A stretch of 64,000 nt of DNA from contig AP026148.1 in the NCBI GenBank assembly GCA_030295235.1, positions 62,001 to 126,000 on the forward strand, given 5' to 3'. Positions within the stretch are counted from its first letter, which is position 1. Each line of letters opens with the position of its first letter. The notes beneath the pieces are model-generated. The model saw only the letters and a list, made by a program, of their open reading frames with translations. It had not been told where the DNA came from and ran no database searches. Made by a program: the position numbers and the translations under genes. This document shows positions 31,521 to 59,371 of the stretch, one piece after another. Source of the DNA: Fistulifera solaris (lineage: Eukaryota).

Positions 31521-33142
31521 CTAAGGTCTCGCTGCGTTCTGTCGCACGACGCGAATACACCCCTGGATGTTGAGGAACCAACAGAGAATTTGATTCCATG
31601 GATTTCCTCCGCTAGGACATGGACAATCATTATCCGCCACATGATCGATCGGCCGACAGCCTACTTGCGATTGCGTCCCTAAACCCGCCCATGTATACAC
31701 TGCATCAAACATATCTTTGCTCATGACAGGACCGACGTTGGCTCCACCAGACCCTCCGGCATGATTTCCCAATGCTATATTCTCTTTAGTTAACAATGCG
31801 CTTCCTGACATGCCTCCAGCAGTATCGCAGTAATATCGCAAGTAATGCGCACCATTCGAGCGAGCTACAAACAGAAAAGACAAGTGACGCGTCTGGTGAG
31901 TTGAAAAACTCACAGTTAGCATTGATCACGCAGCACCGCTTTCCCTTTCTCACCTGGTGGAGAGCATGGCCCAGAAGTCGTCATTTCACCGCGTCTAAAG
32001 TCGTACGGGTAGCCGGTGATGGTAATATCGGCTATTCGAGGGTCAGTGACACCGTTGCTCGAGCTGATGATACTATCGATTGCAACGTAGCCCACAATAT
32101 CTCCTGGCTTTCGGGGGGAGAGAAAAAAGGCTAGAATAAGACGAGGGCGAGGTCCAAAACAAGTTTTTGGGAATCAATGAAAAGGTACGTACGTAAACTT
32201 CATCACAGCCCAAATCCGGGCGATTGATTGGCTTGTAAGTGACCACAGCCATGTCAAAAAATCTGCTTTGCGTCTCTCTATACTCTCCGAAAGCCGTAGC
32301 ATAATCCACTTCCCACATTCCAAACGGTTCGAGATGTTGATTGGTTTCCGAGTCAAAGTATCGCCCAGGCGCAATCCGGGTAATAGGCATAGGTCTTCCT
32401 TCGTTGAAATTCCACACGCAGTGTGCCGCAGTTAAAGCAGAAGTCCGTGAAATCATAGTGGCAGTACAAGAATTGTTGCCCCACCTATAATCGCTGGCAC
32501 CGATGGCTCGAAAAGGGTAGAGAGTCGTATCGGGGACCGCTGAGCGTGTATCGTTCCCTATTATAATCAGGTTTCGGTTTTTGACAATAAACTCATATCC
32601 GTCCGCAAGACCTTTGTATAACATCGTCGGTCCCATTGTATCATTGAGTAGGAATAGCGCGACGCATATTCATAGCCGTCGCTGGTAATTCGTACATAAT
32701 GCCGATCGATGCCCATCTCATCCACTTCGTATTCGTCATCAAAAGCCGTCATATTCTCCAAATTCTCTATCTTTTTGGCGTATCGCGTGCGCTTTGTAAC
32801 GAATCGAAACTCTTCTTCCGCAAATCGGGTAATAGTGGCTTCATCGATGACTTCCGAGTTCATAACGAACGCCGATTCTTCCAAGAGACTGTCACACGGC
32901 CCCAAACTATCCAATTCGATGCCCTGAAAGCCGATGAGTTAGATAAATAGGTATGAAACGCAATCTTCTGTCAGTGCACCTACTTGACACCAGGCCAAAC
33001 ACTCATTCGCGTACGTTAATCCGTCAGATCCGCAGACGGCCGGACCCATGAGGGTCGCATCCAAGCTGCATCCAGCACTACAATTGTAGTCGGCACGAGC
33101 GAGCGTGAAGGAAGCGGCTAGTATTGACCAAGTTCGAATCAT
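31521..33142 (-). CDS. Kazal + glutamyl-endopeptidase-like serine protease, copy 1
   Basis: Signal peptide; Kazal CSAGCSLD...VCGSDGLTYANECLAWC; RNL|IIIGNDTR; triad LTAAHC / FDMAVV / CDTAGGMSG. Introns 32983-32924, 32192-32108, 31953-31865. One apparent frameshift near 32655. Confidence 0.88.
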
Positions 33143-34076
33143 GGATTTCGTGTGTGTGTTTGTGTGTGTGTGTTGATTATGAACCAGAGATTTATAAACG
33201 ATTGGATAAGGAAAATGAAGGAATACTTATTTCTTGTCTGTGTTTGTGAAAGAATGAAGACATTTTTTCATTATTTTTTGTTCTCGTGTCGTGTTTTGTC
33301 AAGAATTGGCGACTTTCACTTTTTAGTAAGCCCTCGATATTTTTAGCTAGGACGCATATGTCGCAGACTCTCACAAATCGCCAAAACGATGTCAATCTTG
33401 GGTCGATCACAAAAAATCGGCCAAGCAAGAAGACCAATAAAGAACCAATTCTGATGAGATAGCAATTCAACGATCCGTCATTGCATATCTCCACACGACC
33501 ATGGCGTTGTGGTTAGGGTTGTACCGTGGCTCCTGTGACTTGGAGCAGAGAGGAATGGCAAACGCTAGCTCGGAAGGTCTCTCCGACTTGCAAGCCTCAT
33601 GAGCGTGCCAATAATGTGGAAAGCGCCTGTTGTGAGGTTGGTTTTCTCAAATTATCTCAATTTTTTTTGTTAAGTAACACTTTTCGAAGTTTGGAAACGA
33701 TAAGGGACTGTACTATACAATTGAAAATGAGAGGATGAGGTTGATGTTCAAAGAAGAATTTTATAAAAGACGACGAGGAGTCCTTGACTTGTTGATTCTC
33801 ACGAACAAGCCATCTTGATTCAAAGGACACAGGCCGCTAGTCTTCGGTTGATTTTGCTATCAGTCCTAGAAGAAATGGACTTAATTCACTTCGACGTCGA
33901 CAATCAATGGAGAAAAGAGCCTTTTTAAGCGTCGAAAGAGCGTCCGTTTCTCTGGATAAGCATCTCGTAATAGGGACCAGGATGTTTTTGTTTCAGCACA
34001 TCGCATTCGGATGGTATAACTGCCGTGATGAGAGTCATTCTATTGACTCAAAACAACATTGCTTGCAATGAGACCG

Positions 34077-35718
34077 CTACACACGACTTTGAAGTGACGG
34101 CAAACACGCTGCAAGGTTGCGGATCCAGCAACGAACGCGACTTCTTCGATTATTGGTGTATTGCGCGCAAGGACAAAAGGTGGATCGCAACTGGCAATTG
34201 AGAGGTTCTTGGTTCGCAAGTCCGGCACCTTGATAAACAAAATCAAAGTTGATTCGGCTGAATACCACCGCACCGTTCGCGCTGCCAAACCCCATATTGT
34301 GAACACCTAAGATTTGGTTTTCAGTGGTGAGCAGCCCGGTTCCGCTGCTCCCTCCTTCCGTATCACAGTAATGAAGAATGTAGTTTGGACCGTAACTTTG
34401 AGCTTTGACAAGTAACGAAGATTTTGAGCGCCAACAGCAAAGCTAACTAGCAATGAAGAGTTTTGTACGTACGTGGATCTGAGCAACGACCGGACGTGAC
34501 CATCTGTTCGTCGAAATCGTAAGGATAACCTGTTAGAGTCATAGTTTGTAATCGAGTATCGGTTACTGATGTATCAGTTCCTGCAACGAGATCAATTCCC
34601 AAATAGCCGACAATGTCACCCGGCTTATGTATCAGCGAAAGATAGAGAAAGAGTCCAAGTGAGATGAGGCGTTCCATGTAGCCATCCATCAATTGTGCTG
34701 TAAAGGGCCAAGGATACTTACGTAAACTTGGGTACTGTCACGGCAGGTATAGCGTGTTTCGTTGCGTGGCTTGTAAGTTACGACTGCGATATCCGCCGTC
34801 CTGCTCCTATTAGCGATGTATGCTTGCATCACGGTCACGTAGTCGACGTCCCACGTGCCAAAAGGTTCCGCAGTTTTGTCGGGCTGCGTAAGATCGATGT
34901 AACGACCCGGTGCTATCTTTTTCATTGGTCTCCAGGTCTTGGAGCTATAACTGTAGGCACAGTGCCCTGCTGTAAGACCCGATCGGCGCGAGATCATGGT
35001 TGCTGTACATAACGTTGGATTATTGTAATCCACTGCTCCAATGGTGCGATAGGGAAAAACCGAAGTGTTTCCTATCACGGAGCGAGTGTCAGGCCCGATG
35101 ACGTCTAACTTCCTGTGACGAAGATTGGATGAAGTATCTTCGACGACACCCCGATACGGCTGAGTTGATGTCATCTTAGTAGAAGAACTCGCCTTGGCAA
35201 TAAATTTGTAGCCCTCGTGAGTCACACGCACAATACTCTTTGTAGCGGACTCTTGAAGGGGAGAAAATATATTGAATTCATCCTCTGCCGAGCCTTCTTC
35301 AACGATCGGTTCCGTAGAAAACTCGATTTCCTTTGTAACGAAACGAAAGTTCTCTTTCGCAAACCGATTCATGATAGCACGCGTAATGATTTCGGAGTTT
35401 CCAGAGAAATCAGGCATCGCGATTCTATCGGCATCTCCCGAGCATGGCCCAGAGGTGAATTTTCTGACGCCCTGTAGTTGACGGAACAAGTGTTAGGACC
35501 GCTAATAACCTAATAGCACTCATCAGACCACTAACCTGACACGAGGCAACGCATCCGTTGACATACGTAAGCAAGTCTTCTCCGCATACTGGACCTCCCA
35601 TGATAGCGCTATCGAGAGAGCACCCAGCATCGCAGTTGTATTGTGCAACAACGCCGGCAAAACTAAAAGCGAGGATAAGGTATGCTGCAAGTACTAGATT
35701 GTTCGAAAGTTTCAACAT
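34077..35718 (-). CDS. Kazal + glutamyl-endopeptidase-like serine protease, copy 2
   Basis: Signal peptide; Kazal; RKL|DVIGPDTR; LTAGHC / ADIAVV / CDTEGGSSG. Introns 35535-35472, 34721-34624, 34472-34403. Splices into an open frame. Confidence 0.88.
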
Positions 35719-36808
35719 GTTAGGCCTTTTTGTTTCGTTTCAAACTTTCTTCTTGAATGAAAATTGTTGGCTTTCTCTTTGCGAGCAAATCTTAGTCCAA
35801 AATTATCAACTGGCGCGTTTTCAAATGCCAATGACATGGTCTCGATAATGAGGACGACAAATACACTTTTTGGTTTTCCGTTGGACTGTCATCACGATTA
35901 GATAGAAAAATTAGTACAGAGAGTCTTACCAAAAACGACGATCCGGTATTCCAACTGCGCTCAATTATTCAAAACTTGCGCTAATTATTGTATTACATAG
36001 AGTGACTAAGCCTAAGTACTTGAAAGCATTCGTCTAAGATAGGCTTTAGATTTGCTTAACAAGGGACTGCAGACACAAAAACAAGAGTGTCATCTACAGA
36101 GTTAATTGTGATGTCTCATCGTCACACAGGCGTCCAATCAGATGCAACCTATTGCCTTTTCGCGCACCTTCAATTTCGCGAACGCAACATGAGAAATGAG
36201 AGAAAGTTCGGTTGTGTTGTTATTCAAGTGATTCAAGAGAGGAAAAGCATTCGACAATCCTCTAATAATGCACTTTGCAGGTCATTTATCTGCAGGATGC
36301 GCTGCTGGCGTGACTTTGGTTGGCGGTAGGATCAATGCGACTTTCATTTCTTTCTGTTAACCAAGTTGAAGCAAGGGCTGATTAATAGAAAACTGGCAGC
36401 CCCACTTGATAAGCAAAACTATCGGAGAGCAAAGCAGAGAAAACGTTTAATCGACCACGACATGCAAGTTGAATTCACTCGAAAAACCCATCTTCGTTAG
36501 AAGTGATCCTGCCTCATCGTTCCACACGTTTCTTCGCATATATCAAGGTCAAAGATTCTGTGCAGTTTAATAGAGAATACGCTTTGCGGGGCCGGAAGCG
36601 ACCCCATCACCCATCAGCGTTCTTTGCTGGCTGTTCATCGAAAAATGGCCGCTGGGTGTTGAATAAACAATGGAACTACATTGTGAAATCGACGTTTTCT
36701 AGTGCAAAGTATTTTTCTTCGTTCGGGTGCGGTTGGTTGAAACGGGCTTAATGATGCAGATTATGAGTTATACACAAACCTCGTTGGTCAGAAGCATGAA
36801 GTTGATAA

Positions 36809-38366
36809 CTAACGGCCCAGACAAGCACCAAAGTTGCGTAGATTACATATCAGTCGTGCAATTCTTCTACTACCGAACTCTGCACATGTGCAAGTTTGGG
36901 GCGCTTGACTCGTTAGCCCAGCCCAACTGGAAACTATGTCGAAATATTCGGGAGTCAAAACCGTGGCTCCATTGACTCGACCTGGTGCTATAGGATTGTT
37001 ATGCGCTCCATTATGGACGCCCAACACTTTGTTGTCATTCGTCAAAGTAGCGGCGCCACTCATCCCGGGCATAGTGTCACTTTAAAAGTACGTCCATGAG
37101 AAGCCAGACATAACCAATATTGTTTGATCGAACCGCCATAGATCACTTACCATGTGTGATAGATATACTTGGGCTTGGTGGAGAATGCTGTGCGAAGAAA
37201 AAGTCAAAGTCATGTGAGTATAGTCGGAAATGACCAAGTATTCATTCACTTGATACTTACGTGCATTGGGACAGAGCCCTGTTGTGATCATCTTGTGTTT
37301 CATATCATAAGGGTATCCTGTGATGGTCATGTTCGAGAATCGCGCATCAGTGACGTTCGAATTATCTTCTCCTACACGGTCTATTGACAAGTATCCAACA
37401 AATTCCCCAGGGTAGACCGAAAAAATACCTAGAAAACGCCTCCTTCGTTTCTTGAACGTAACTACACCCATGTCATAGATTTCATTGCCTGATTCCTCCC
37501 ATCCCTTAAAATAGGATGTGTAATCAACATCCCACGTGCCGAAAGGCTCCGTGGTATTATCAATCTGCCCCGGATCATAAAAACGACCCGGAGCGAACCG
37601 AGTAACGTTAAAAGTCATTTTGGCCGCTCTATCGTAAAGACAATGCGCCGCGGTTATACCAGAAGTCGGACTTATCATGGTAAGAGTGCACCCGGAATCG
37701 GAGAAATCGAAATCCAACCCACCCATGGTCCGATAGGGAAAGATAGTCGAGTCTGGAACCATCGTCCTCGTGTCTTCCCCAATCACCACTAATTTTCGCT
37801 TGCGAAGACGCGGCTGATTCTCAGCAATACGACCTTCGTAAGAAGGCGTGGGACCTTGGATCTTGGCAAATGACTTGACTTTCGAAATGAACTTGTATCC
37901 CTCACTGGTGACACGTACGGTATCAAATCCATCCGGCGATACAGACGATGAAAACACATTCGAGTTGTGTATGAAATCGCGAATCGGATCCCTTGAAAAA
38001 TCAATCTCTTTCGTGACGAATCGGAAACTTTCTTTCGCAAATCGACTCATAATTTCACGCGTAATTACTTCGGTTTGCCCCGAAAGATCAATCTGTTCGA
38101 GGCGGTCTCCTTCACCCCCACAAGAGCCCGCAGTGAACTTGACGCCCTATACGAACGACACGTTAGTCTCATCAGCGATGAAACTATTCAACGGCAATGT
38201 CACTTACTTGGCAAAACGCGAGACATCCGTTTGCGTAACTTATTCCATCGGATCCGCAAACGGGTTGCCCCATTAGGGCAGGATCGAGACTGCAACCCGC
38301 ATCGCAATTGTATTGTGCCGCTGCAGGAGCGACCCAAAGGATGAGAAGAAGTAAAGCGTTCCACAT
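36809..38366 (-). CDS. Kazal + glutamyl-endopeptidase-like serine protease, copy 3
   Basis: MWNALLLL signal; Kazal; RKL|VVIGEDTR; ITAAHC / YDMGVV / CDTMPGMSG. Introns 38207-38147, 37260-37188, 37150-37080, with a 37-nt exon between the last two. Confidence 0.88.
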
Positions 38367-40342
38367 GTTGCCCGTTCCCTTGGAAGATCTCGGTTTTCGA
38401 TTTGGAAAAGCAAAGTCTTTTGGAAATGACAGCACCTGCCGATGCAACGCTGAAGAACATTTCCAACTGAAGTCATTCGGCGGGGCTGGCTCGGAGCAAT
38501 TTCGAGGGCTTCATACAAAACACGTCTAAAAACTTCGTATCATCGTGTCTGTACTTGGGCACGCTATCAAAGAAGTCCGCGAGGACATCAAACCATTTTG
38601 GCAAGACCGGTAAGTACTAAGTACTTATATTTATATTAAACAGGAAACGCGCTAACCGACCATTTCCTATCAATAAAAGTATCAACGGCTGCCAAGTATG
38701 GAGCTGGGAGAGTGAAGCATTTTTTCGCAATGACTTCCTTTCATTTTTTCTGTTTTCAAACTGGATAACAAAGACCTCGTTCTATAAATGGAGCCGTTGC
38801 TAACTATCAAACGGTCGACTCCGAAATCTATGTTCCGAGAAAAAGTAGCCGTAACAACGGAACTCGCATCATGCGTGTTTGTTTGTCGTTGTACAAGGTA
38901 TGTGCAATGTGATGTAATTGATGATGAAGGAAAAAATTGTTTGTGTCATCAAGAGCCGTGGCAGTGAGCAACTCGAAAACGACTATGTAAAGGGCCGACC
39001 ATAATATACCATCGAGGGTTTGAGAGATATTATAGCGACAATTGTACTGGTCAATCGGAAAACCATGTAGATATTTTAGGGGAACGATCTACCATCGCGG
39101 CTGTGAGACACGCAAGAGCCACCACCACCACCACCAAAATAGATTAAGTTTATGTGACTCGAAGCGGTTTGCTAATGTTCTTCAGCGAAAAAGATGTAGC
39201 GGCTTTCGTCCATCTTGTCAAAAACGCCCTGGAGAGCTCAGATTCTTTATCGACCGTGAGGAGGCGTTTACTGCCATCGAATTCTTGATCAATACCCAAC
39301 AGAAAAGGCCCCCAGACATGGATCAAGGATTTGCATTCCAATTCAAAATAGGATGCAGTTGAGCCACTCGCCTTACCGCAACGGCCCTCTGGTTTGATGT
39401 GAAAGTTCTCTTCGATCGTGCTCGTCCATCCTTCATGGTCGGCTAGAGCGTTCATGAATTTTAACAAGATCGACCCAACTGCAGTGAGATTCACGGGAAA
39501 TAGGTACATATCTTCCATTGGAGAGTCGACTACCATGGCCTTGAAACTTGATGATGCAATTTTCATTGTTCGAATAGTCGGGTGCGAAAAATTGTCCCTG
39601 TATTACCTTCTCTTCGGACTGAGTGCGAGTCGAGAAGGCATACGCTACTTCTGCTGTGAGCTGAGCTACGCCGACATTATAAAGATGCTCGATGCAATGA
39701 ATTGCAATTTAAAATTATAGCTGAATGTCTCGATTCATCTAAAAGGATCTCACAAAGATTGTGTTCGACTTGAAGCCCCAATCAGCAAGTCGCAAGAGCC
39801 CTAGTCAGCCCGCTTTGCTTTTCCGAATGAAGACTACGTCGCCAAGCCAGTATTTGACAAAAATGGTGTTGGGAGCAATGCTACCAGAAATAAATGGCTC
39901 TCTAGCCAACATTATTGCCTATTGCTTTTGATTAATTTCTGGCAATATGGCTTTTTTGTCTGAAAGACGACTGAAAGCAAGAGGGATGATAGTGGATCCG
40001 AACCGAAGATTTGGCTTTTTATGCTGATGAGGGATCAGTCACGACCTAGCGATTTGGTGAGATTCAAAACTCTTTGAAGTATACCTCGTTCAACATTCAG
40101 ATTAACCTGCTTCCTAATAGTCGAAATCGCCTGTTAGATAAAGTGTATACTTTTCGCTTTAGTTGCTAAAAGGTCGTCGATAGTTGCACATTGCAAATAC
40201 GGTTCCTAGAGTTGATAGCTCTTCTTTTGTGAAGTTAACGCGCTCATTGCTAATTTGAGTTTAATGTACAATCGCCCGCGATGAGGGAAAGTTGAGGCAG
40301 GGCTTTGAAGGGCATGATACGCAGCAGGATGCAAAGAATTCA

Positions 40343-41976
40343 TCAGATTCGGTTCGCGCTTTCCAGTGCCAGTCGCAAACAACCTCTAAAGTTAATAAAC
40401 CAACAGATTGCCCGCTGGGACGGATTGCTTTGTGATGAGCAGGGACACGTGTTTGATGCTGAGCATACGAATGCCTGTTGATTTGCTAGTCCTGCCCAAG
40501 TAAATACGGAATCATACAGTTTGTCCTTCAGAACAGCTCCTCCATTGCGACTAGATACCCAATTTCCATGAGCATGAACACCGACAGCAACATTGTTGGG
40601 GAGTAAGAAGCTACTCCCGCTCATTCCCGCAACCGTGTCGCAAAAATGCCAGATATAGTGCGAACCGCCCGACAAAGCTATCAATCAGAGAAAAAGATGA
40701 GCGTCAGTATAGATTGCAACATTTTTTCTCGTATCTTGTCGCTAATTTTTCCACTTACCTTCGCGAGAACAGGCGTTCGAGGTGACCATCTTCCAAAGTA
40801 GTCGGAAGGATAGCCAGTAACAATGAGAGCGGCCAAGCGCGGATCATTAACGACTGAACTTGTTCCTAAGACTCGATCGATACCAACAAATCCTACTACA
40901 TCGCCCGGCTTTGTAGGGAACGAAGAGCCTAGGTTAGGCCACGGAATTTCAGTGTATTGCGAATCCACATGAATGATACTTACGTAGACGTTTGAGCAAC
41001 CGAGATCGGGACGATTGGATGGCTTAAACGTGACGACAGCCATGTCAAAGTTTCCATCTTTTGAATCTTTGTACTCCCGGAAGGTTGTCGTATAATCCAC
41101 ATCCCACGTTCCATAAGGATCTATCATACTACCAGTCGAAGCATCCACGTAACGTCCTGGAGCCACTTTCATCATCGGAAGCGGTTCGTTGGTACTCGTT
41201 CGCCAAACACAGTGGCCGGCAGTTAATGCTGAACTTCGAGAAATCATTGTTACTGTGCAGACGCTAGTCCCCTTGGTATAGTTATAGTCCGCGGAGCCGA
41301 TGGCGCGAAAGGGAAAAGCGGTCGTATCGGGGACAACACTTCGAGAGTCCGTTCCGATGACAATCAAATTACGTTCACGAAGAAGCTTTCGGTCAACTTG
41401 GCCAGCAAGACCTTCGTTCGCAACACTGGAATTTGGAATGCCAGTCGATGCTGTTGACTCCAAAGGCGCCATAAACTCGTAACCTTCGCTAGTAATACGC
41501 AAAACGTGAGGATGAAGAGGGACGTCGAGGCGATCCACCAAGTCGGATTCTACGACATCTTCGTAATCATCGAGCTGTGTTGCAAATTTGACTCGCTTGG
41601 TCACAAACCGAAAGCTCTCGTGCGCGAATCGATTCATAACATCCATTGTTATCACGTCAGCACTTCCCGGAAAATCAAACCCAGACAATCGGCTTTCATT
41701 CATTCCTTCGCATGACCCGTAATTGAATTTGGTGACGCCCTGTATAACAATCCGATCAACGAACCGTTAGCCTTCTTGTCTGATCAATCACGCATTGCAG
41801 CACGTTTGCGCACTTACTTGACACCACGCCACACAAGCGTTCTGATAAGTGAAGCCATCGTCGTCGCATACAGATGGACCCATGATGCTTCCATCGAGAG
41901 AACATCCTGCGTTACAATCATACTGTGACGCCACACAGGTAAACGAAGACAGAATGAACAAGAGAGTCTTTCGCAT
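40343..41976 (-). CDS. Kazal + glutamyl-endopeptidase-like serine protease, copy 4
   Basis: Signal peptide; Kazal; RNL|IVIGTDSR; LTAGHC / FDMAVV / CDTVAGMSG. Introns 41817-41740, 40983-40909, 40758-40678. Apparent single-base deletion near 40791. Confidence 0.88.
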
Positions 41977-42909: not shown

Positions 42910-42910
42910 G

Positions 42911-42958
<48 letters not shown>

Positions 42959-42964
42959 CGACGA
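42910..42964. repeat. (GAT)n microsatellite
   Basis: About 16 GAT units followed by GAC units; intergenic. Confidence 0.95.
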
Positions 42965-43217
42965 CCCTCTAGCTTTCAAAAGGTGCAAAAATACTCTTGA
43001 AACAAAGTTGTTTTGTACTGCTTTGTGCAAGTATATAAATGCGATTGAGAACATTTGAATCTTTCCACACTATAGGCGTTCAGACGATATCAAAACATTC
43101 TAGATTTCTTCGATTGCTATGCGAGTTAGTAGGCATCCTTCGGTAAGCTAATAATCGTTTACGCGATAAAGCAGACAAAAAAGTAGATTAATTCGCAGAT
43201 TATTTTTACATCAGTTG

Positions 43218-45476
43218 TCATTTCTTGCCACCTTTACCACTTGAGCTCTTCTTGTAGTGCTTATGGTAATTATCAGAGTCAGAGGCACTACTGTACTTTT
43301 TCTGTTTCTTCTTTTTACTGCTCTTGCCGTTACCTGGATAGGGTTGTAGTACCGGAGCTGCGACTGGACTCGTGGGACTTCTGACGGGTTGGGTGGGAAG
43401 AATGTCGGCAGTCGGGGCCACAAAAGCAGGTGCAGTCACGGGGCTGGCGACGGGCAATGCCTGCGGTACGGCGACAGGGAGCACAACGGGTCTGGGAACG
43501 GGCACGATCTCTGGCACGGGAGCAGGTAACGTAACGGGACTGGCGACGGGCACTGCCTGAGGTACAGGTGCTGGGGCCACAACGGGTCTGGGAACGGGCA
43601 CGATCTCAGGCACGGGAGCAGGTAGCATTACCGGGCTGGCGATGGGTACCACCGGAGGCACGGGAGAGGGAAGCACCACCGGGCTGGATACGGGCACGAT
43701 CTGAGGAACCGGAGCCGGGAGCACAATAGGGCTAATTACTTTTACTGGCTGTGACGCTGGAGCGGGCTGTGGTGCTGCTACTGGTCGAACGATAGGGCTG
43801 ATGACTTTCACTGGTTGAGACGCTGGAGCAGGTATTATTTCACGTGTTGGACCTGTAACTTGAGAAGGGGCTGGTGCCGGCAGAACGATTGGAGACAGTC
43901 CTGGTGAAGGTTGTCTCTGCGGAGTTGAGACGGGTCTCTGAACCGGAGGAGCCACAGGTTGTACAACTGGTGATAATACTTCAGTTCGTGAACACAAGGT
44001 TTGACCTCTCCCATGTCCCGCCCATTCATAGATAGATGCGTACAAGCGCGTCGTCATCATCACAGCCCCATTCACGCTTGATGATGCGGTTTGAACGCCA
44101 TGGGTGTGAACTCCCAGAGCAATATTGCCCTCGACTAAAACCGAGCTCCCAGAATTACCTCCGACGGTGTCACAGTAATGATTGATGTAATTAGGCCTGC
44201 GACTTTCAGGAGCTAGAACGGAAATTGGGAAGTTATTACGTGAGCTGGCAGCGATAGCTAACAAACCGAAGGAATACTATTGACTTACCTCGATCGCATG
44301 GACCGGATGTCGCCATCTGGCGATTATAGTCATACGGATAGCCGGTGATCACCATCGTCGACAAGCGGCTATCCACAACTCGTCCATCTACTTCAGCTGG
44401 ACGATCGAGTCCTACATGCCCTAAGGCATCTCCGGGCTGAGATGGAAAAGAGAGTGAGAGTGAGAACGTAGCCTTGCGTTGGCAAGCGCAAACCCAGAGA
44501 TACTTACGTATAGCTCCTTGCAGGTAGAAAGATTGTTGCGGATACGGGGCTTATAGGTCACAACCGCAATATCGAAATTGGTATGACCAAACTGCTGAAA
44601 GTTTCCAAACAACGAAACATAATCCACTTCCCAAGTTCCAAAGGGTTCCGCTGTCCCGTCTCTTTTCGTGGCGTCACGAAATCTTGCCGGAGCAATCGCA
44701 GTCATATTCATTGGCGCCTTCCTGTTCGTATTCCAGACACAATGCCCAGCCGTCAGTGCCGAGGTGCGGCTGATGAGCGTCAACGTGCAACCTCCTTCTC
44801 CCCACCAATAATCCGCGTTTGCTATAGTACGAAATGGGTATCGAGTTGTATCCGCAACTGGAGTTCTTGAGTCTTGCCCGATCAGGACCAACTCTCGTCT
44901 TTTGCGTGTGCCATCATCCTCGCCGTCGTCTTCCAAGCCGTTTTCGCCCAAAAGTCCCAGTTGTGGCGCAACTGGCTGGAGGAGCGCTTCCTCTTCAAAT
45001 GTTAGTGTCGTTCTGTACTCGTATCCTTCGGGCGTGAACCGATAATTTGGAACAAACTGGTCATCCATTTCCTCCAGAAAATCATCGTCTGTTTCATTAA
45101 TCATTTGCTCCTCGAGCAAGTAGCGGATATCTTCTTCAAAATTAGTCGACGGTAGGCGCTTTCCAACGAAACGATAATCCGAGAAGCGTGTCATGGTACT
45201 CATGGGGATAACTTGTGGCTCCGACGACACGAAGGACTCTTGGAAAGGATCTTCTCCTTCGCAAACACCCAAGCTAGCAACTGTAATGTTCTGGCATACC
45301 GCCAAACATTCGTTTAAATACGTGAGATTGTCTCCTCCACACACAGGTGGACCCATGAGACTAGCATCTAGACTGCAACCGACGTTACAATCATACGTTG
45401 CTTGTGAAGCAACGATTGAAAGAAGGGATGCCAATGAAACGAGATGTAGAAGAGACTCTTTCATGATGCAGTTCAC
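43218..45476 (-). CDS. Kazal + glutamyl-endopeptidase-like serine protease, copy 5, with long Pro/Val/Ala-rich repeat tail and basic C-terminus
   Basis: Signal peptide; intron-less Kazal; REL|VLIGQDSR; LTAGHC / FDIAVV / CDTVGGNSG. Introns 44507-44437 and 44288-44213. Tail of PAPVPxIVPVxSPVVL-like repeats, then KKKKQKK...GKGGKK. Confidence 0.88.
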
Positions 45477-45986
45477 TTGATTTAGCTTGTTCTTTCGATA
45501 ATAATTCCGATTGTTTTGATGTGTTTGATATATTTTTTGGTTTGTGTCTTTATTGCTGGATGTTTAGTTGATAATTCTGTAGAATGATCTGAGAAAGCAT
45601 TTTGAAATTGTGTGGACTTGTAGTCTTACTTTCGCTCCGCCTAACGCTTCATTTGTTCGCCGCTATAAATGTGCATCCGACAATTTGAATAGAAGTTGAT
45701 CTGCAGATACAGTACGTCTCTCAACCGCGAATGTTCTTTTAAAGGGTTAGCGATCGGCATCCTCCGTTGACTACCGCATACGACATCCGTCCGTCCGTTT
45801 GCTCGATTGGAGGGAGGAAGGAGAAAGGAGACACTAATTATTACCGGTACTGGTACTGTACTGGTATGGTCCGTCGCCCGCGTCGTGAACGAAAAGAACA
45901 ACAATAACACAGCAACGATGAAAGGGCCACAACATACTTTGTATTTGACCCTTTCTTTCACTCCTCTTTCAATTCTCGAGACTGCA

Positions 45987-47472
45987 ATGCCTTCAAGAAC
46001 CTTTCTTTCGCTCTACAGTCATTCAATTTTACTGCTCATCCTCTCTCTGACGCTCTCTAGCAGTCAATCGTCTTCATCTTATGATTGCGAAAACGAGGGA
46101 TGCTCATGGGAGACGGTCCCTCCTGTCTGCGGTGTGAACGGCGTTACCTATGCGAATGAGTGTTTGGCTTATTGTCAAGTGAGTACCAGGTATTTGTGCT
46201 GCTGCCTTTCAAAGCGTCTGTTTCGCTGCTTCTTTCTGTCTCGAATAGAGGATGTTCTGTTGTCAGCACAAATGTTTTTGCAGTCAGTTCTATCTGCACT
46301 TCCTAACTCATTTTCGCTTTTCATCGCAGAATATAGAGATCGCTTTCATCGGTCCTTGTTCCGAAAGCGGCAGTATTGCTTCCACCCCTTATGACGATGG
46401 GATCAATGCAACTATTTCGATCATGCAGCGGTTTCAAAAGGAGAATTTCATGCTGACAGAAAGACGGAATTTAGCTGATCTCGTGCTTCCAGAATACAAT
46501 CCAACATTCCATTCCGAGATGAGGAAAGACGAGATACCTCTCGAACAACAACCCATGTTGTGGAGTCGGTTCACGTCTGATGGTTATGTCTATACGGCGG
46601 TGGTTACAGACGAGAGTAACAAACGGTTTTTACAAGAGTTGCCAACAAATTACGAGTCACATAACAATCGCTCCTTGATTATAATTGGTGCCGATACGCG
46701 AAAGATTGTCACTAACAATCACAATCGCTTGCCTTACTCGCCCATTGTTGAGTTAGATTACGGGTTTGGAAATTCAGAAGGCGGCTGTACCGGGACATTG
46801 ATAGGGAAAAGTTCGGTTTTAACGGCGGCTCATTGTTTGTATAACTTTGGCCGCAAAGAATACACGAATCCCTTACGCATGGCACCTGGTCGATATCGTC
46901 AAGGTACTAGTACAATTGAACCTCATGGACTCTTCGGCTTTCGCTACTCGACTATTTTTAGTGTTTATCAAACGACGGGAGATGGGCGTTACGATCTAGG
47001 CGTCGCTACATACAATGCAGACAGTCAAGGTCGGTTTCCCGGTCAACTCGCAGGTACTCTTTGTTTAACAGAAGCCGCGACACAAAAGCTTACGGCGGAA
47101 ACAATTCTGGCCGGTTATCCGATGGATTTCCCCGACGGAAATCTAGTAGAATCGAGGGGCTGCAAATGGCGTCTTGAGAATGGGATCATTTCACATGACT
47201 GTGATACGACAGGAGGACAAAGCGGAAGTCCTATCGTGTCCTCGATGTCTGAAATGCTGGGACTGCACATCGGATATGATCCCAATGCTCCTACGATCAT
47301 CAACACTGCGCTCGGCTGGAACAATGCTACTTACAGCTCGGTGTACGCGTGGGCTCCCGATGCCAGAAGTTGTCCGGATCGAAGATTTTGTAGCAACTGC
47401 CCTGTCCTTGAGAGATCTTTGATGCGTGCACTGTGTTCTCTGGTCTGCCGGGTGTTCGGTAATGCAGAATGA
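45987..47472 (+). CDS. Kazal + glutamyl-endopeptidase-like serine protease, copy 6 (most divergent)
   Basis: MPSRTFL signal; Kazal CENEGCSWETVPPVCGVNGVTYANECLAYC; intron 46179-46329; RSL|IIIGADTR; CTGTLIG, LTAAHC / YDLGV / CDTTGGQSGSP. Confidence 0.88.
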
Positions 47473-47656
47473 AGTTTGAGTTTGCGTTGGTATTCTAAAC
47501 GATCTTTAGATGGAGGAAAGTAACGCACAACAGCAGAGAAACGCCAAGTCCGTGGTTGCTTTATCGCTTGATGAAAGATTATGGATTAAGCTAGATGCAT
47601 CCTAATGTTTGATTTCGAGGGAGAGGATGGTGCAATACGTACTTAACCGGAGCTGA

Positions 47657-48863
47657 TCATGCTAAGTCGCGATCTTTTCGGGTATCCTTTGGCTGCGTCT
47701 TCTCGAGTATCTTGCTGCAAACTTTCCAGGCTTGAACTGATGTTGTGTGTAACGAGCACACGGTTCGTTGCAGTTGCTGCTGTTGTCGAAGAGACTGGTC
47801 ATGCGAATAAGCCATTTGTCGCAACTCATGATGGAGCTTATGCATCTCATGTTGAAGCATCATAATTTGATTTTCTTGACGCTGCAACCGATCTTGTAGC
47901 AAAGTGATTTGGTTTTTCCTGACCATTATGAAATGGAAGATATAATGCGCGAAGCTGAGACTGAAGGAACTCTAATGATTGAGCTTGACCTGGAAACTCA
48001 CCGTTAATTAACGGTCCGAACTCATTCCCGGACGCAATATGACCCTGAGACCCATAGAATGGCTCAGCAATTCCCCCTGGGCAGATGGGTTTGGTTTGGC
48101 ATGCCTCCCGACGGCACAGCGTATCGTTGACTCGTGAACCTTTGTTGCACTGAGATCGGACGAATGGGCACTTCTCCTTGAAGTCTGCTTTTCGGTACAT
48201 CAATGGTTTCCGTAGAGTCTTTGTTCCTTGATTCGCGGTTGACAATCTTTTCTCGGGAACGTATGTCGGCTATCGCTGTCGCCCCGGACGGCTCCTCACC
48301 CGATGAATCCAAGAGATAAATTGTCGTTTTGCGCTTCCGTCGGTTGCTCTCCGTATCGTTCGCCTTTTTCTACTCGAAAACGGCATCTTTGCTTTTCTTC
48401 TTGTCAGTAGTGCTGCTCTCCTGCACATAGCACAAACACATTTGTAGGTCGCGAAGCTGGCACTGAATGACCTCCATTTGTGCTGCCAGATTTGACTCGC
48501 TTCGCCTCCGTTGTTCAAAGGCCCAAATTCATTGAGAGAGAGGCTGCCGAGTCCCGTGATGCTTAAGTTTCCGTCTACATTGTTTTGGTTGGTTATGCCT
48601 CTTAATTGTGGACGGCTGAATCCATGCACGTGGTGCAAGAACTTGAGTAGGTCGTAGTATTGAGATTGAAAGATTTCTAGCTGTTGCACCACACTCGATT
48701 GAAAGCGACTTGCATATGCTTCGGTGTTCAACGAAACAAATCCATTTAGGGGGACACCATATTTGTGAGGCCCACCGATGAATCCTGCTATTCGGAAGCC
48801 TCTGTCCGTGCTGTTTTGGTTAGAAATGCCTCCCAATTGTTTTGCGACTCTCTGTTGATTCAA
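47657..48863 (-). CDS. Hypothetical protein, fragmented across frames, with internal NEFGPL repeats and C-terminal coiled coil
   Basis: Consecutive minus-strand ORFs (48270-48863, 48064-48312, 47847-48245, 47657-47926) share the repeated motif NEFGPL(N/I)NG and LE(I/F)xQSQ, and end in heptads (LQDRLQRQENQIMMLQHEMHKL). May extend further upstream. Confidence 0.4.
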
Positions 48864-49632
48864 TCCTTGCTCAAAGGAGCCGGATTCTGAACATGGGGTT
48901 GCTGAGCGGATTCCGGATCGTCACCATTGATGGAGGGGTGCGGCTTGCTGTCTTCCCTTCGAGTTAGCGACATCTTTCTCTGATACTTTATCTATTTGGA
49001 TTTTTGGCTTCTTCGGTCGTTGAGATTTGCTTTTACTTTGACAATTATTATCTTCACGGTCTTTTTCATTTGATTCACAATCAAAAATCTGCTTTCGGGC
49101 GCCGAAGAATCTGTGTCCGGTGGCCGAAAATTCTCAATCATTGTCGGACGATTCCTGCAGCTGTACCACGCCGCGCTTCTTTTTGTCGTTATTGATCGCA
49201 TTTATCAGCTTGGGATCAGAAATGACTCGAACACAGCTCTCTTTCTTATTTGTAGTAGTGCAGGGTGCGCTGGACGTATCCATGTTGGCTCTGATGGGTT
49301 TAAAATAGAGCGAAGTGAGCTGTCGTTTTCAATCCAATCACAACACACCAGTAGTGGTGCGGAAACTATAAGTAAGTAGCTGCATGAATTCATACAATTG
49401 TTGCATGGCATGATGCGGAACGAGTATTTCCCGTGGACGCTGAGGCGGGAGTCGCCTTCAAGATGTCGCCGAATGTCATCCATTCCCATCTGTATTGACG
49501 TACCTGGACGCTTGTGCCTTATTCCTAATCATCGTTCTCTGTATCAAAGAGTCTTTCAAATGAGAAAAGATGATTTTTGAGCAATAAAGGATTTACTTGT
49601 ACACGGTCGAGTGCTCGTCGTGAAGAAAAATG

Positions 49633-49693
49633 AATGATGACGATGATGATGATAATGATGATGATAATAAAATGATGATAATAATGATGATGA
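49633..49693. repeat. Imperfect (GAT/AAT)n microsatellite
   Basis: GATGATGACGATGATGATGATAATGATGATGATAATAAAATGATGATAATAATGATGATG-like tract. Confidence 0.85.
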
Positions 49694-50169
49694 GAGATCC
49701 TCGCATCTGACGAAAGAAGGGCGAAACGATTGTATCCCGTTTACGCAAACTCGTGTTTAAATGAACTCGGTGCGACGGTCATTTGCTAGGATGTGACACA
49801 CACACTGTTATTGTACGCGAAAAACTTAGACGTGGATACCGAAAGCCCATCAATACCGTTTGGGACTCTTGCTCCCTACTCGGTACTGGAAAATTGAAGT
49901 TTGACAAAGAAATAGTACTAAGAATTTAGAAACGATGCTGTTTCCGTCACAGGAGGCAGTACCGATACTTGTAGTTGTCGTGCGAATTTGTCTTTCAAAG
50001 TCCGAAATTTTGAAGTCAACGGTCACATCGCGCTGACAAGGGCACAAGCAACGGCGCACTTCGTATGCGGCAACTAAAACGAAAAAGTCACCACGGAAAA
50101 AAAGAAAGCACAACAACAATAACGACCGAGAGCCTCGCAGTGCTTTAAATAAACACTTCCACAATCAAC

Positions 50170-51700
50170 ATGACTTGTTGTTCGTTTATCAGTATATCAA
50201 TAGCTATAATATCAGCGAGTCTGTTCGCACCGAGCTGTCTCGTTGTGGTCGTTACGGCACAAGAAGTTCAACAACCGACCTACGATTGTCGAACAGGATG
50301 TAGTTTAGATGCCAACATCAATGGACCTCCCGTTTGCGGCATCGATCAACTGACTTATTTAAATGAATGCTTAGCGGTTTGTCAGAATGTGGCGATCGTA
50401 CATTACGGTCCCTGCGATCAGGATGGTTCGCTTTCCGAAAGTGAGCTCTCCACCGATTCGGAGGTAGTTACTATGGAACTCATGACACGTTTCATATCAC
50501 GAGGATATCGTTTCGTGTCAAAAAACACCAGATTTCTTAGTCAACCAGAGAATACAGAAGAGTCGGTTGTTGTAAACGAGGCCGAAAGCGCGACTGTTAG
50601 GGTTGTGGAAGACATTGAGCCGTATTTTGTTCTATTCACTCCCGATGGATATGAATACGCCTATCGTACCACTGACTCGTTGCCTTCGTATCCTGGACCG
50701 ACACCGCTGTATATGGGCATGCAGCAGCTGCGGCGACGTTACCTAGCTATCATCGGGGCCGACACCCGCACTGCCATTTCAAATACCCAAGCCTATCCGT
50801 ATCGGACGATCGGCGAGGCCGACTTTGGAACGCTCGAAGGCGGCTGCACTTTAACCATGATTTCGCGGAATGCGGCTATCACAGCTGGGCACTGTGTCTA
50901 CAATTACCAGAACAAAGTTCCTATTCAAATGAAGCGCATTGCGCCGGGAAGGTATAGAGACAGTTCCGGTAACACGGTCGAACCATTCGGTACCTGGGAA
51001 GTTGAAACTATGCAAACCTTTGGGCAATTCAAATCCACGGGAAACATGACGTTCGATATGGCAGTGGTGACCTTCCAACCAGAGACACGTGACAACATGC
51101 AGAACTGCCCTTATGTGTATCCTGGAGACGTTGTGGGGTTTTTGTCATTAGATAGAGCGCAAACGAGCGGAGGACGCATCAGTGATAGTCGACTGGCGTC
51201 TTCCACGATTACCGGATATCCTGCAGACTTTCCGAACGGCGTCATGGCAACTTCAGGGACCTGCTCCAAAGGTAAGTTTTATGTGATTCGACTCAGTTGC
51301 GGCGTGGCTCTACGAACCGTTACCCTCACTCTTTGCATTTCCCAAAGCATGGCATTCTAATCATGAACAATTCGCCTACCATTACTGCGATACTTTCGGC
51401 GGGAACTCGGGCTCAGCCGTCATTACGAGCGGAAACGTCGTAATAGGAGAACATGCTTATGGTTTCTACGACAACAATAACGTCGCGTTGAATAACGGAG
51501 CCGTTATGCTAACAGGTCAACTCTACGACTCGGTTTATGATTGGGCTGGCTTGGGAATTTCACAGGAAGCTTGTGGATTCATCGCAGGACCAGAACCTAG
51601 TGCTGATTGTCTGTGTACTCAATTTGAGGACCGATGGTTTCTTCAAATCGTGTGCTTCATTTTGAATCGCGACACATGTTTCCGGAGAAACGCCAACTAG
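50170..51700 (+). CDS. Kazal + glutamyl-endopeptidase-like serine protease, copy 7
   Basis: Signal peptide; intron-less Kazal; RYL|AIIGADTR; ITAGHC / FDMAVV. Intron 51272-51347, then YHYCDTFGGNSGSA, continuing into the 51488-51700 ORF. Confidence 0.88.
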
Positions 51701-59268: not shown

Positions 59269-59350
59269 TTGTCCTTATTGCAAGAGTTACCTACGGCGAT
59301 GCTGTATTGCATCGCTTTGAACATTCCCGACGACGGCGTTACTCTCTTTC
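59269..59350 (+). repeat. Direct partial duplication of the first ~80 bp of the downstream gene
   Basis: TATTGCAAGAGTTACCTACGGCGATGCTGTATTGCATCGCTTT...GACGGCGT.ACTCT occurs at about 59276 and again at about 59379. Confidence 0.9.
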
Positions 59351-59371
59351 GCTATTCTACGAGAAAGCATC

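Follow-up and report, generated by a model that had tools for sequence, protein, structure and literature searches.

Organization of the gene cluster

The stretch of Fistulifera solaris DNA analysed here (64,000 nucleotides, called the window below) contains a cluster of genes whose products combine a Kazal-type domain with a serine protease of the S1B type (Table 1). A tblastn search of the window with eight family proteins as queries returned seven loci, all inside positions 31527-51691, and no locus in the rest of the window. This agrees with the seven paralogs of the initial annotation, which placed five on the minus strand and two on the plus strand; they are numbered G1-G5 and G6-G7 here, respectively. 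The genes flanking the cluster were ordinary eukaryotic nuclear genes. In each of the seven gene models the N-terminus, the Kazal domain, the pro-region and the protease follow one another in the order proposed earlier, and every predicted protein starts with a hydrophobic N-terminus and has six Cys in the Kazal order, the motifs TA(A/G)HC and CDTxxGxSG(S/A/T), and an Asp within (F/Y/A)D(M/I/L)(A/G)V. The His/Asp/Ser triads, previously described as intact, were indeed complete in all seven. The hydrophobicity of the N-termini suggests signal peptides, in which case the seven proteins would be secreted. About 110 residues separate the Kazal domain from the protease in each protein. Local amplification, also suggested earlier, was supported by an unrooted family tree, in which all paralogs but G6, together with their homeologs, formed one clade (support 95). 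A bacterial origin of the protease, likewise suggested earlier, would be a hypothesis that this unrooted tree neither favours nor opposes.

Table 1. Genes, exons and diagnostic sites of the Kazal-S1B protease cluster (window positions)
Feature	Position	Strand	Description	Exons	Kazal	R-x-L codons	His	Asp	Ser
G1	31521-33142	-	Kazal + S1B protease, 462 aa, 4 exons	31521-31864, 31954-32107, 32193-32923, 32984-33142	32894-33082	R-N-L 32568-32576	32421-32423	32253-32255	31806-31808
G2	34077-35718	-	Kazal + S1B protease, 469 aa, 4 predicted exons	34077-34402, 34473-34623, 34722-35471, 35536-35718 (predicted)	35442-35634	R-K-L 35106-35114	34962-34964	34791-34793	34344-34346
G3	36809-38366	-	Kazal + S1B protease, 450 aa, 4 exons incl. 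37-nt micro-exon	36809-37079, 37151-37187, 37261-38146, 38208-38366	38120-38306	R-K-L 37790-37798	37643-37645	37472-37474	37058-37060
G4	40343-41976	-	Kazal + S1B protease, 466 aa, 4 exons	40343-40677, 40759-40908, 40984-41739, 41818-41976	41710-41916	R-N-L 41365-41373	41212-41214	41044-41046	40619-40621
G5	43218-45464	-	Kazal + S1B protease, long Pro-rich Lys/Ser-ended tail, 699 aa, 3 exons	43218-44212, 44289-44436, 44508-45464	45261-45389	R-E-L 44889-44897	44742-44744	44571-44573	44151-44153
G5 repeat	43438-43733	-	Tail-coding tandem repeat, 48 nt (16 aa), 6.2 copies (Tandem Repeats Finder)						
G6	45987-47472	+	Divergent Kazal + S1B protease, 444 aa, 2 exons	45987-46178, 46330-47472	46086-46359	R-S-L 46669-46677	46831-46833	46993-46995	47221-47223
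G7	50170-51700	+	Kazal + S1B protease, 484 aa, 2 exons	50170-51271, 51348-51700	50287-50415	R-Y-L 50737-50745	50890-50892	51055-51057	51407-51409

Gene structures and transcripts

We took the contigs of runs X2-X4 as cDNA, with their RNA origin presumed, because they contain GT..AG joints that are absent from the DNA-like run X1. These contigs showed that the genes are expressed as spliced transcripts and contained the joints of nine introns in G1, G3, G4, G5 and G7. All three introns of G1 were present as GT..AG joints, and the one at 32924-32983, whose removal links the Kazal exon with that of the protease, was spliced out in three of the three cDNA-like runs, which supports the earlier view that the two parts are joined by splicing. 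The other joints were those of G3 (37188-37260, in three runs, with loose contig ends at 37151 that are consistent with the micro-exon), G4 (40678-40758 and 40909-40983), G5 (both introns) and G7 (in three runs; joint 51265/51342, cut +6). For G2 and G6 all introns, and for G3 and G4 the Kazal intron, were predicted solely by GT..AG sites and homology (Kazal introns 41740-41817 in G4 and 46179-46329 in G6). Intron 3 of G2 is ambiguous (34403-34472 or 34396-34468), and one X2 contig (33811-34555) reads through it unspliced.

The fusion is also visible without splicing, since single open reading frames of G5 (44421-45563, minus strand) and G7 (50149-51360, plus strand) contain the Kazal domain, the pro-region and the protease up to the first intron and up to the intron, respectively; a single frame of G6 (46249-47472, plus strand) covers the entire pro-region and protease. 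As assembled in the window, G1 and G4 are frameshifted. The frame was restored in G1 by one A inserted after 32649 in contigs and in G4 by an additional T behind position 40790, present in the DNA-like X1 as well as in the cDNA-like X4, and these positions are read as X in the translations. The G3 model was identical over 450/450 residues to protein P0176, named FisN_9Lh369 [Fistulifera solaris] at NCBI, and G4, G5 and G7 were 92.5%, 90.9% and 92.4% identical to FisN_9Hh368, FisN_9Hh367 and FisN_9Hh364, respectively. One X2 contig omits 144 nt (43525-43668) of the G5 repeat, corresponding to three repeat units.

The protease domain

The initial annotation had assigned the protease part to the V8/Bacillus type and not to S1A trypsins or HtrA, and the profile and fold matches both pointed to S1B. 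A family profile built from 24 diverse members was closest in sequence to the Bacillus intermedius glutamyl endopeptidase (BIGEP, 1p3c; E 5.8e-47) and to V8/Esp (MEROPS S1B; E 8e-30 for V8), whereas the S1A enzymes among the matches listed ranged from E 7e-12 (TMPRSS13) to about 1e-8. The alignment with 1p3c started at chain residue 2, from which the V-I-G-D-x-R block is aligned with the mature enzyme. BIGEP was also closest by fold: 1p3c was the top Foldseek match (E 8e-17, TM 0.86 on target) of an AF2 whole-chain model (pLDDT 78, pTM 0.79), and every match listed was of S1B type. HtrA chains were absent among the matches listed for the family profile and for Foldseek. In Pfam, the single frame of G6 exceeded the cut-offs of Trypsin_2 (34.5 bits) and Trypsin (32.2 bits), and no NCBIfam protease family was matched at E 0.1.

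The paralogs share with BIGEP and V8 the order of motifs, the Thr at Ser-5 (in CDT) and the His of G-x-H, both present in all seven, and with the Bacillus enzyme a Cys pair at the His loop. The segments lining S1, namely DT..G.SGS, G.H and NG(G/A), agree with those of this Glu-specific enzyme, and the pocket of the paralogs looks Glu-type. According to the cited part of PMC5508998, Glu- and Gln-specific proteases have a conserved His213, and this residue does not fix Glu specificity alone; because of the latter, the mature enzyme could also prefer Leu. Unlike the BIGEP and V8 genes, the diatom genes are eukaryotic, nuclear and intron-bearing, and their products differ in the pro-region of 150-170 residues with its Kazal domain and R-x-L junction, in an extra Cys pair (C351/C367, P0007 numbering), in the Cys-rich or Pro-rich C-terminal tails and in lacking an NCBIfam family match for the protease.

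Breadth of the family

The Kazal-S1B architecture is not unique to the cluster and is widespread. It was found in at least 52 distinct proteins among the fetched relatives, named green-algal ones included, and a Kazal domain was present in 56 of the 78 fetched proteins that begin with Met and have a complete protease domain preceded by more than 120 residues. The earlier statement that no such family had been described held insofar as our literature search gave no study of the architecture among its ranked results; it did not hold for public records, in which the architecture is machine-annotated in a diatom and in green algae.

The Kazal-like domain

For the individual genes the Kazal call was weakly backed by Pfam, since, unlike in Kazal inhibitors, the scores were mostly below the gathering cut-off, which was reached by two of the six Kazal-bearing pieces scanned, those of G1 (24.9 bits) and G3 (23.5 bits), with the Kazal exon of G4 outside the scan. 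The family profile gave a clearer result, and its best matches for the Kazal part were true inhibitors, namely leech-derived tryptase inhibitor (1an1_I, 2kmo; E 3e-9), ovomucoid (third domain, 1cho_I; E 1.9e-7) and rhodniin. The six Cys of these inhibitors recur in unchanged order in the diatom domain, where they are invariant across all 24 aligned family proteins, together with the core V-C-G-x-D-G-x-T-Y-x-N-x-C and a Cys1-Cys2 spacing as short as in the leech inhibitor. Kazal inhibitors are free or occur in inhibitor arrays, whereas the diatom domain is fused ahead of a protease. Between Cys2 and Cys3, the loop is 11 residues long in six paralogs and 8 residues long in G6 versus the canonical 7, which is kept in 21 of the 52 Kazal-bearing family proteins. 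In classical Kazal families the reactive sites are hypervariable; in contrast, the loop is the best conserved part of the six paralogs (71% identity, compared with 47% in the protease and 14-26% in the linkers). P1, which is the Cys2+2 position of Kazal domains, is Leu in six of the seven paralogs and Trp in G6; across the 52 distinct family proteins it is Leu in 31 and acidic in 2.

Kazal-like modules that are not inhibitors are known from agrin, follistatin, SPARC and OATP transporters, and the diatom module could likewise be a disulfide-rich structural or binding element that aids folding or tethers the zymogen to the wall or matrix. The 11-residue loop may not be inhibitory at all, a single-sequence search also matched agrin (E 3e-6) and OATP transporters (E 2e-3 to 2e-2), the OATP Kazal-like segment was the only NCBIfam match to the Kazal-bearing pieces scanned (G5, G7), and the G5 tail resembles a wall-anchoring region. 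We nevertheless consider this role unlikely, given the true inhibitors at the top of the profile matches, the canonical loop length in a part of the family and the reactive-site-like C-S-L-D, similar to C-T-L-E of ovomucoid.

The propeptide junction and a model of activation

R-x-L immediately precedes X-[VIL][VIL]G-x-D-x-R in all seven paralogs and occupies the junction in 34 of the 52 distinct Kazal-bearing proteins, being absent from 18; the -1 residue is Leu in 36 and Glu in 5. The sections cited of earlier studies describe N-terminal RXL sites as markers of pro-peptide cleavage, found only in biosilica-associated proteins (PMC5647440), with RXL domains removed "by a yet unknown protease" (PMC5525289) and with typical RXL pro-regions of ~30 residues (PMC5525289, PMC5647440). 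The pro-regions of the cluster end like those of silaffins, cingulins, silicanin-1 and SAPs; unlike them, they are far longer and folded, and their cargo is an enzyme. In the named green-algal copies with a junction match, the conserved block is preceded by R-x-L-K, R-A-L-S or R-R-L-L, not by R-x-L at -3 to -1, and the match may be a lineage habit. Like the diatom proteins, BIGEP, V8 and Esp have a propeptide. Its removal is required there: the cited part of PMC5508998 reports that the zymogen is already inactive through its unprocessed N-terminus, that the S1 pocket is formed only after processing and that the final activation is heterocatalytic.

We propose, with a probability of about 0.6, that the cluster arose when an uncharacterised algal family of secreted S1B zymogens expanded in this lineage, and that these zymogens would be activated after R-x-L and have a Kazal domain that would most likely target another protease. 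The chain would be made as a signal peptide, a Kazal-type domain, an acidic pro-region with two conserved structured motifs and the protease. The N-terminal extension would prevent activity, as it does in V8, BIGEP and Esp, where the S1 pocket is completed by the free amino group at the N-terminus of the mature chain. A cut directly after R-x-L would leave X-(V/I)-(I/L)-G-x-D-x-R, with an N-terminus that is homologous to residue 1 in the Bacillus enzyme, and since R-x-L is the diatom cell-wall "RXL" processing signal, this cut would probably be made by the Leu-directed secretory protease that acts on that signal rather than by the enzyme itself. The mature enzyme would probably favour acidic P1 residues. 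The Kazal domain would most likely bind a conserved Leu-directed protease, either the activating enzyme or chymotrypsin/subtilisin-like enzymes; alternatively, it could serve as a folded part of the pro-domain.

Less likely, the Kazal loop would insert into the Glu-type pocket of the protease itself, either that of the same chain or that of sister molecules, and inhibit it until the Kazal part is removed or displaced. Such self-caging would fit an old and retained linkage of the two domains, a loop conserved as if for an endogenous partner and a pTM that suggests one predicted arrangement of Kazal domain, pro-motifs and protease. However, a P1 that is commonly Leu and rarely acidic does not match a pocket that keeps the residues found in Glu-specific enzymes, the N-terminal extension by itself already makes V8-type zymogens inactive (PMC5508998, part cited), and six paralogs have a loop of non-canonical length. 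Self-caging is not clearly supported by the sequence, and we regard it as improbable. Still more doubtful is that the proteases are themselves Leu-directed RXL-type enzymes, self-activating after R-x-L and with the P1-Leu Kazal domain as cognate inhibitor, as might be suggested by the unidentified state of the diatom RXL protease (PMC5525289, part cited) and by the co-occurrence of Leu at -1 and at the Kazal P1 (26/5/10/11, odds ratio 5.7, Fisher p 0.013, relatedness ignored), since this association is explicable by shared descent, the S1-lining segments are those of the Glu-specific enzyme and the Glu at -1 in five members is expected of a self-cutting Glu-specific enzyme.

Other Kazal-containing proteins

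HtrA1/3/4 consist of IGFBP, Kazal-like, S1C protease and PDZ domains. They resemble the diatom proteins in having a Kazal-like module N-terminal to a chymotrypsin-fold serine protease in one chain that is secreted, as is predicted for the diatom proteins, and differ in that the latter are S1B, not S1C, and have no IGFBP or PDZ domain in Pfam. Secreted stramenopile Kazal domains (EPI1/EPI10) inhibit subtilisin-type proteases of another organism. In the part of PMC3790786 cited here, stramenopile Kazal-like proteins are, unlike those of the cluster, stand-alone or arrays, some with two disulfides, and none is described as protease-fused. The secreted Kazal-like inhibitors EPI1 and EPI10 of Phytophthora (PMC1236909, in the part cited) are similar to the proteins of the cluster, whose secretion is predicted, in being secreted stramenopile Kazal domains.

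Organization and splicing of the seven genes

The motifs that had been noticed in repeated form on both strands were recovered in the stop-to-stop ORF list of 31000-52500. A tblastn search of the 64-kb window with eight family proteins as queries gave seven loci between 31527 and 51691 (G1-G5 on the minus strand, G6 and G7 on the plus strand) and no further locus elsewhere in the 64 kb. The G5 and G7 ORFs each run, unspliced, from a hydrophobic N-terminus through a six-Cys domain and a pro-region into the protease, and a complete protease domain lies within a single G6 ORF (Table). The proteins encoded by G1-G7 are 462, 469, 450, 466, 699, 444 and 484 aa long, respectively.

Contigs from four runs of one study cover the stretch; that these runs are RNA is only a guess of the record. 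One run (X1, DNA-like) covered 31521-51520 fully and without joints, whereas the contigs of the others (X2-X4) lay mainly over the genes and had joints with GT..AG ends on the strand of the gene, and these three runs were taken as cDNA-like on the basis of such joints. Nine introns were placed by contig joints (Table), and the positions of the others were predicted from GT..AG sites and homology; the placement of the third G2 intron is ambiguous, and one X2 contig runs unspliced through it. The initial annotation had made its fusion proteins depend on splicing of the Kazal exons to the protease exons, and this is what was found for G1, where the joint at 32924-32983 is present in three of the three cDNA-like runs. 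The G3 model includes a micro-exon of 37 nt (37151-37187), coding for P-F-S-T-K-P-K-Y-I-Y-H-T, which is backed by the joint 37187/37261, by loose ends at 37151 and by the deposited protein.

A phase-0 intron behind the fifth Kazal Cys and the Gln next to it (C-Q/G-V) is common to five genes, including the distant G6, but not to G5 and G7. By this distribution the Kazal intron seems to be old and to have been lost either twice, or once with gene conversion.

In two genes the reading frame is broken in the assembly, which is one base short in comparison with the contigs: an extra A follows 32649 in the X2 and X3 contigs (G1), and an extra T follows 40790 in the X1 and X4 contigs (G4). With these bases in place no frameshift is left in the cluster, and the breaks thus have the look of errors in the assembly. 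For annotation, this means that nothing but single-base errors disrupts G1 and G4. Pseudogene status was rejected, as all seven genes read through and both frameshifts are absent from the reads. Ten more single-base differences between contigs and assembly are non-coding.

Positions of features in and around the gene cluster
Feature	Position	Strand	Basis or remark
G1 introns	31865-31953, 32108-32192, 32924-32983	minus	contig joints
G3 intron	37188-37260	minus	contig joint
G4 introns	40678-40758, 40909-40983	minus	contig joints
G5 introns	44213-44288, 44437-44507	minus	contig joints
G7 intron	51272-51347	plus	contig joint
Kazal-splitting phase-0 intron	32924-32983, 35472-35535, 38147-38207, 41740-41817, 46179-46329		five paralogs
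G5 ORF	44421-45563	minus	unspliced
G6 ORF	46249-47472	plus	complete protease domain
G7 ORF	50149-51360	plus	unspliced
Cys-rich tail	31521-31650, 34077-34200, 36809-36900, 40343-40470, 47380-47472, 51580-51700
G5 C-terminus with Pro-rich 16-aa repeat	43218-44000		repeat of 6.2 copies
Non-coding single-base differences	33262, 33319, 33984, 35866, 38595, 38839, 42490, 45599, 48073, 48955		contigs against assembly
Beta_propel ORF, 668 aa	28852-30858	plus	PF09826, E 1e-78
Transglut_core2 ORFs	57555-58235, 59321-60616	plus	adjacent
X2 contigs in G6-G7 spacer	47841-48439, 48768-49362
X3 contig in G6-G7 spacer	48792-49218
Spacer ORF, 216 aa	48270-48920	minus

The protease domain belongs to the S1B group

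An alignment of 24 diverse full-length family proteins (A1) was used as a profile and searched against all PDB sequences. The lowest E-value was obtained for the Bacillus intermedius glutamyl endopeptidase (BIGEP, 1p3c; 5.8e-47), with V8 protease at 8e-30, Esp at about 1e-25, and the exfoliative toxins and Spl proteases between 1e-11 and 1e-23; the best S1A entries, TMPRSS13 and factor XI, were at 7e-12 and 2e-10. For structural comparison we used an AF2 model, made with the A1 alignment, of the G4 homeolog P0007, which is 92.5% identical to G4. The pLDDT of the model exceeded 90 over the Kazal domain, the two pro-region motifs and most of the protease, and its pTM was 0.79. Its top Foldseek match was again 1p3c (E 8e-17, TM 0.86 on the target), and all of the matches listed were of S1B type (exfoliative toxins, V8, Esp, Spl, YdgD, Anisep). 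The profile and the model thus bear out the earlier assignment from motif order, i.e., the protease is S1B, and neither S1A nor HtrA.

The catalytic His, Asp and Ser occur in order, with the conserved motifs, in all seven paralogs, and H229, D284 and S374 are invariant in A1 (24/24), as are the six Kazal Cys, the Cys pair of the His loop and G372-x-S374-G-S. The S1 residues of Glu-specific members, G-x-H (His213) and C-D-T (Thr at Ser-5, the Thr/Ser190 position; chymotrypsin numbering), are also found in 7/7 paralogs. PMC5508998 describes His213 as common to Glu- and Gln-specific enzymes and not as the sole determinant of specificity.

With Pfam, the uninterrupted G6 ORF scored above the cut-off (Trypsin_2, 34.5 bits; Trypsin, 32.2 bits) and the intron-interrupted pieces among the 13 ORF pieces gave sub-threshold Trypsin matches only. 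Among the NCBIfam matches of the five ORF pieces scanned (E up to 0.1) there was no protease family, and the Protein Atlas returned only generic trypsin-like clusters without structure. Compared to S1B enzymes of the V8/BIGEP kind, the cluster proteins agree in fold, triad, sequence and S1 residues; of the features compared, only a match to a bacterial NCBIfam model is lacking. They differ from HtrA by having neither a PDZ nor an IGFBP domain (Pfam, 13 pieces) and by a protease that matches S1B, whereas that of HtrA is S1C.

The predicted pro-region ends in an R-x-L junction

In the A1 profile the V-I-G-x-D-x-R block was aligned from residue 2 of mature 1p3c. Directly before the mature N-terminus predicted in this way, all seven proteins have an R-x-L tripeptide (RNL, RKL, RKL, RNL, REL, RSL and RYL in G1-G7), which is present at the junction in 34 of 52 family proteins; five have Glu at position -1 instead. 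The pro-region contains two motifs conserved in A1, M-x-R-F..(E)GF-x-F-V-G and V-R-x-T-x-x-G-x-E-Y (in P0007, residues 80-100 and 130-146), and an acidic linker with 16-32 Glu+Asp in 106-124 residues.

According to PMC5508998, the mature N-terminus of Glu-V8, BIGEP and Esp is part of the S1 pocket, which forms only after processing, and these enzymes have a long 'folding assistant' propeptide as well as a short activation piece, the latter being removed heterocatalytically. We infer that the cluster proteins would work like zymogens of the V8/BIGEP type. In diatoms, N-terminal RXL sites are described in passages of PMC5647440 as the pro-peptide cleavage site, found so far only in biosilica-associated proteins, and a passage of PMC5525289 has RXL domains removed 'by a yet unknown protease'. 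In sequence, the cluster proteins have the same order of parts as the diatom proteins with an RXL propeptide, i.e., a putative signal peptide, a pro-region ending in R-x-L and a mature part. Because the junction R-x-L is the diatom RXL motif, we propose that the proteins may be secreted as zymogens, that the acidic linker could then be trimmed, and that the last cut would be made after R-x-L by the RXL convertase.

The Kazal domain and its possible partner

The Kazal domain was judged against Pfam PF00050 and PF07648 and against MEROPS I1. Six Cys in the Kazal order around V-C-G-x-D-x-x-T-Y-x-N-x-C were found in 7/7 paralogs and in 24/24 aligned proteins. Kazal_2/Kazal_1 matched each of the six Kazal-bearing pieces in the scan, which came from the genes other than G4, and two of the six reached the gathering score of 22.8 (G1, 24.9 bits; G3, 23.5 bits; the other four, 18.6-19.5 bits), the pieces being incomplete in five genes, where the sixth Cys is on the next exon. 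The family profile matched leech-derived tryptase inhibitor (E 3e-9), and the G5 Kazal segment alone matched ovomucoid (1.9e-7), leech inhibitor (1.9e-5) and rhodniin (4e-4), as well as agrin (3e-6) and OATP transporters. The Cys pattern and the similarity to solved inhibitors are therefore shared with Kazal inhibitors, but in this lineage the canonical loop length is not: instead of seven residues between Cys2 and Cys3, there are 11 in G1-G5 and G7 and eight in G6. Among the 52 family proteins the loop has 7 residues in 21, 11 in 20, 8 in 10 and 9 in one.

In Kazal inhibitors the P1 residue is the second after Cys2, a rule that is consistent with the ovomucoid loop C-T-L-E. By this rule P1 is Leu (C-S-L-D) in six paralogs and Trp in G6; over the family it is Leu in 31/52 and acidic in 2/52. 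These residues bear on the idea of the initial annotation that the Kazal loop inhibits the protease of its own chain. To judge from the pTM of 0.79, AF2 puts the domains into a fixed mutual arrangement, as such self-caging would have it, but a P1 that is mostly Leu and so rarely acidic is ill suited to a Glu-type pocket, and we consider self-caging a live but unlikely alternative.

Among the six closer paralogs, identity is 71% in the Cys2-Cys3 loop, 60% in the Kazal domain, 47% in the protease and 14-26% in the linkers. A loop so well conserved points to a single, conserved endogenous partner of the Kazal domain and speaks against an arms race with proteases of foreign origin. A Leu at P1 also tends to co-occur with a Leu at the junction (26/5/10/11; Fisher p 0.013, relatedness ignored), which would fit a Kazal domain whose target is the Leu-directed enzyme cutting the junction. 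In a bolder reading, the association would also fit a protease domain that is itself Leu-directed and is the target of its own Kazal domain.

In a further, speculative reading, the family would be part of the missing RXL processing machinery of diatoms. In one form, the mature enzymes would be Leu-directed endopeptidases of wall proteins, among them silaffins and cingulins, which they would cleave after R-x-L, with the P1-Leu Kazal domain as a built-in cognate inhibitor; in the other, the Kazal domain would be a dedicated convertase inhibitor that controls when it is itself released and when wall proteins mature. Taken together, the two forms are a long shot.

Family members in other organisms

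When 1.84 billion representatives were scanned with P0007, 837 proteins matched at E up to 1e-3, 149 of them at E up to 1e-10. Among the fetched proteins, 78 have a near-full protease, start with Met and extend over 120 residues upstream, and 56 of these contain a Kazal domain; it is present in none of the 56 with at most 120 upstream residues, a group that includes many truncated contigs or short forms of bacterial type. By regex, 52 distinct proteins with both a Kazal domain and the junction were counted. The same build, precomputed as Kazal_1 plus Trypsin_2, is present in the green algae Raphidocelis subcapitata and Tetradesmus obliquus; Monoraphidium minutum and M. neglectum have related records, and P0177, cited alongside the green-algal records, has a Kazal sequence. 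Because these named records have the same build, the family is not a diatom oddity and spans at least diatoms and chlorophytes, a range that rests on few named records.

In an unrooted FastTree tree built from 140 protease domains, one clade (support 95) united the homeologs with G1-G5 and G7, and G6 was placed on a different, older branch. The tree has only two named bacterial rows (a Geminicoccaceae bacterium and a Candidatus Brocadia species), and many of its rows without Kazal are N-terminally truncated contigs. Pairwise identity among the seven paralogs is only 29-47%, so that the duplications are not recent. The G6 protease domain gave 64 pattern matches in 185,579 prokaryote genomes, none of them confirmed; such a single-protein query reaches close relatives only.

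A protein search with the G7 ORF retrieved 35 proteins, the best of which bear the name 'hypothetical protein FisN_9Hh364/367/368 [Fistulifera solaris]' or, in JGI, 'V8-like Glu-specific endopeptidase'. The G3 model is identical in 450/450 residues to FisN_9Lh369 (in UniRef, 'Kazal-like domain-containing protein'), and G7, G5 and G4 share 91-92% of their residues with the 9Hh proteins, as fits a cluster with a second copy that is homeologous. Entries for the genes thus exist in the databases under machine-given names, as uncharacterised proteins. Kazal plus V8-like protease was not described in the top-ranked literature matches, the closest being papers on oomycete Kazal inhibitors and a glutamyl endopeptidase review. 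The view that the architecture is undescribed thus stands for this literature, but not for the databases, which include machine-annotated records from a diatom and from green algae.

The family is real, expressed, conserved and apparently unstudied, and of the new leads the RXL junction lends itself best to testing. Secreted chains that combine a protease with a canonical inhibitor domain are rare, and here the pairing has been kept across at least diatoms and green algae, apparently without ever being studied. It offers a tractable test of what an inhibitor module does inside a zymogen, be it a self-latch, a guard against the activating enzyme or a shield against foreign proteases. The proteins, enzymes themselves, are also candidate substrates of the RXL convertase, which bears on the biogenesis of the diatom silica cell wall. 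Diatoms attacked by algicidal bacteria release protease, and the family members are candidate secreted effectors in alga-bacteria interactions.

C-terminal tails and neighbouring genes

G5 alone has about 270 Pro-rich C-terminal residues built on a 16-aa repeat, followed by a Lys/Ser-rich tail (K-S-S-K-K-K-K-Q-K-K...), which we take to be reminiscent of wall or silica-targeting regions. If the family did belong to the RXL machinery, these Pro-rich repeats and the Lys/Ser-rich end would put this member into the wall itself. A stretch of 144 nt of the repeat, equal to three units, is skipped by one cDNA-like contig. A Cys-rich tail, C-x-C ... (I/L)-C-(W/F)-x-(I/L)-(N/R) ... C, is conserved in six of the seven proteins, with a variant form in G6; it also occurs in some distant members (P0042, P0008), and in the model its pLDDT is below 50.

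Base composition is even over the window (GC 0.42-0.50), and the genes next to the cluster are of an ordinary eukaryotic kind (bromodomain acetyltransferase, IGPS, myosin, DnaJ, fucokinase/pyrophosphorylase, Est1, fumarase and transglutaminase-like proteins). Contamination by bacterial DNA was rejected on account of the spliceosomal introns and of the myosin, bromodomain and fumarase genes around the cluster.

The G6-G7 spacer is covered by cDNA-like contigs and probably contains an unannotated expressed gene; the ORFs of 47841-49362, such as the one of 216 aa, have no Pfam family. Directly upstream of the cluster, an ORF contains a full Beta_propel domain, of a family best known from secreted proteins of prokaryotes. 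Two adjacent ORFs, both with Transglut_core2, represent a second small local duplication in the window.
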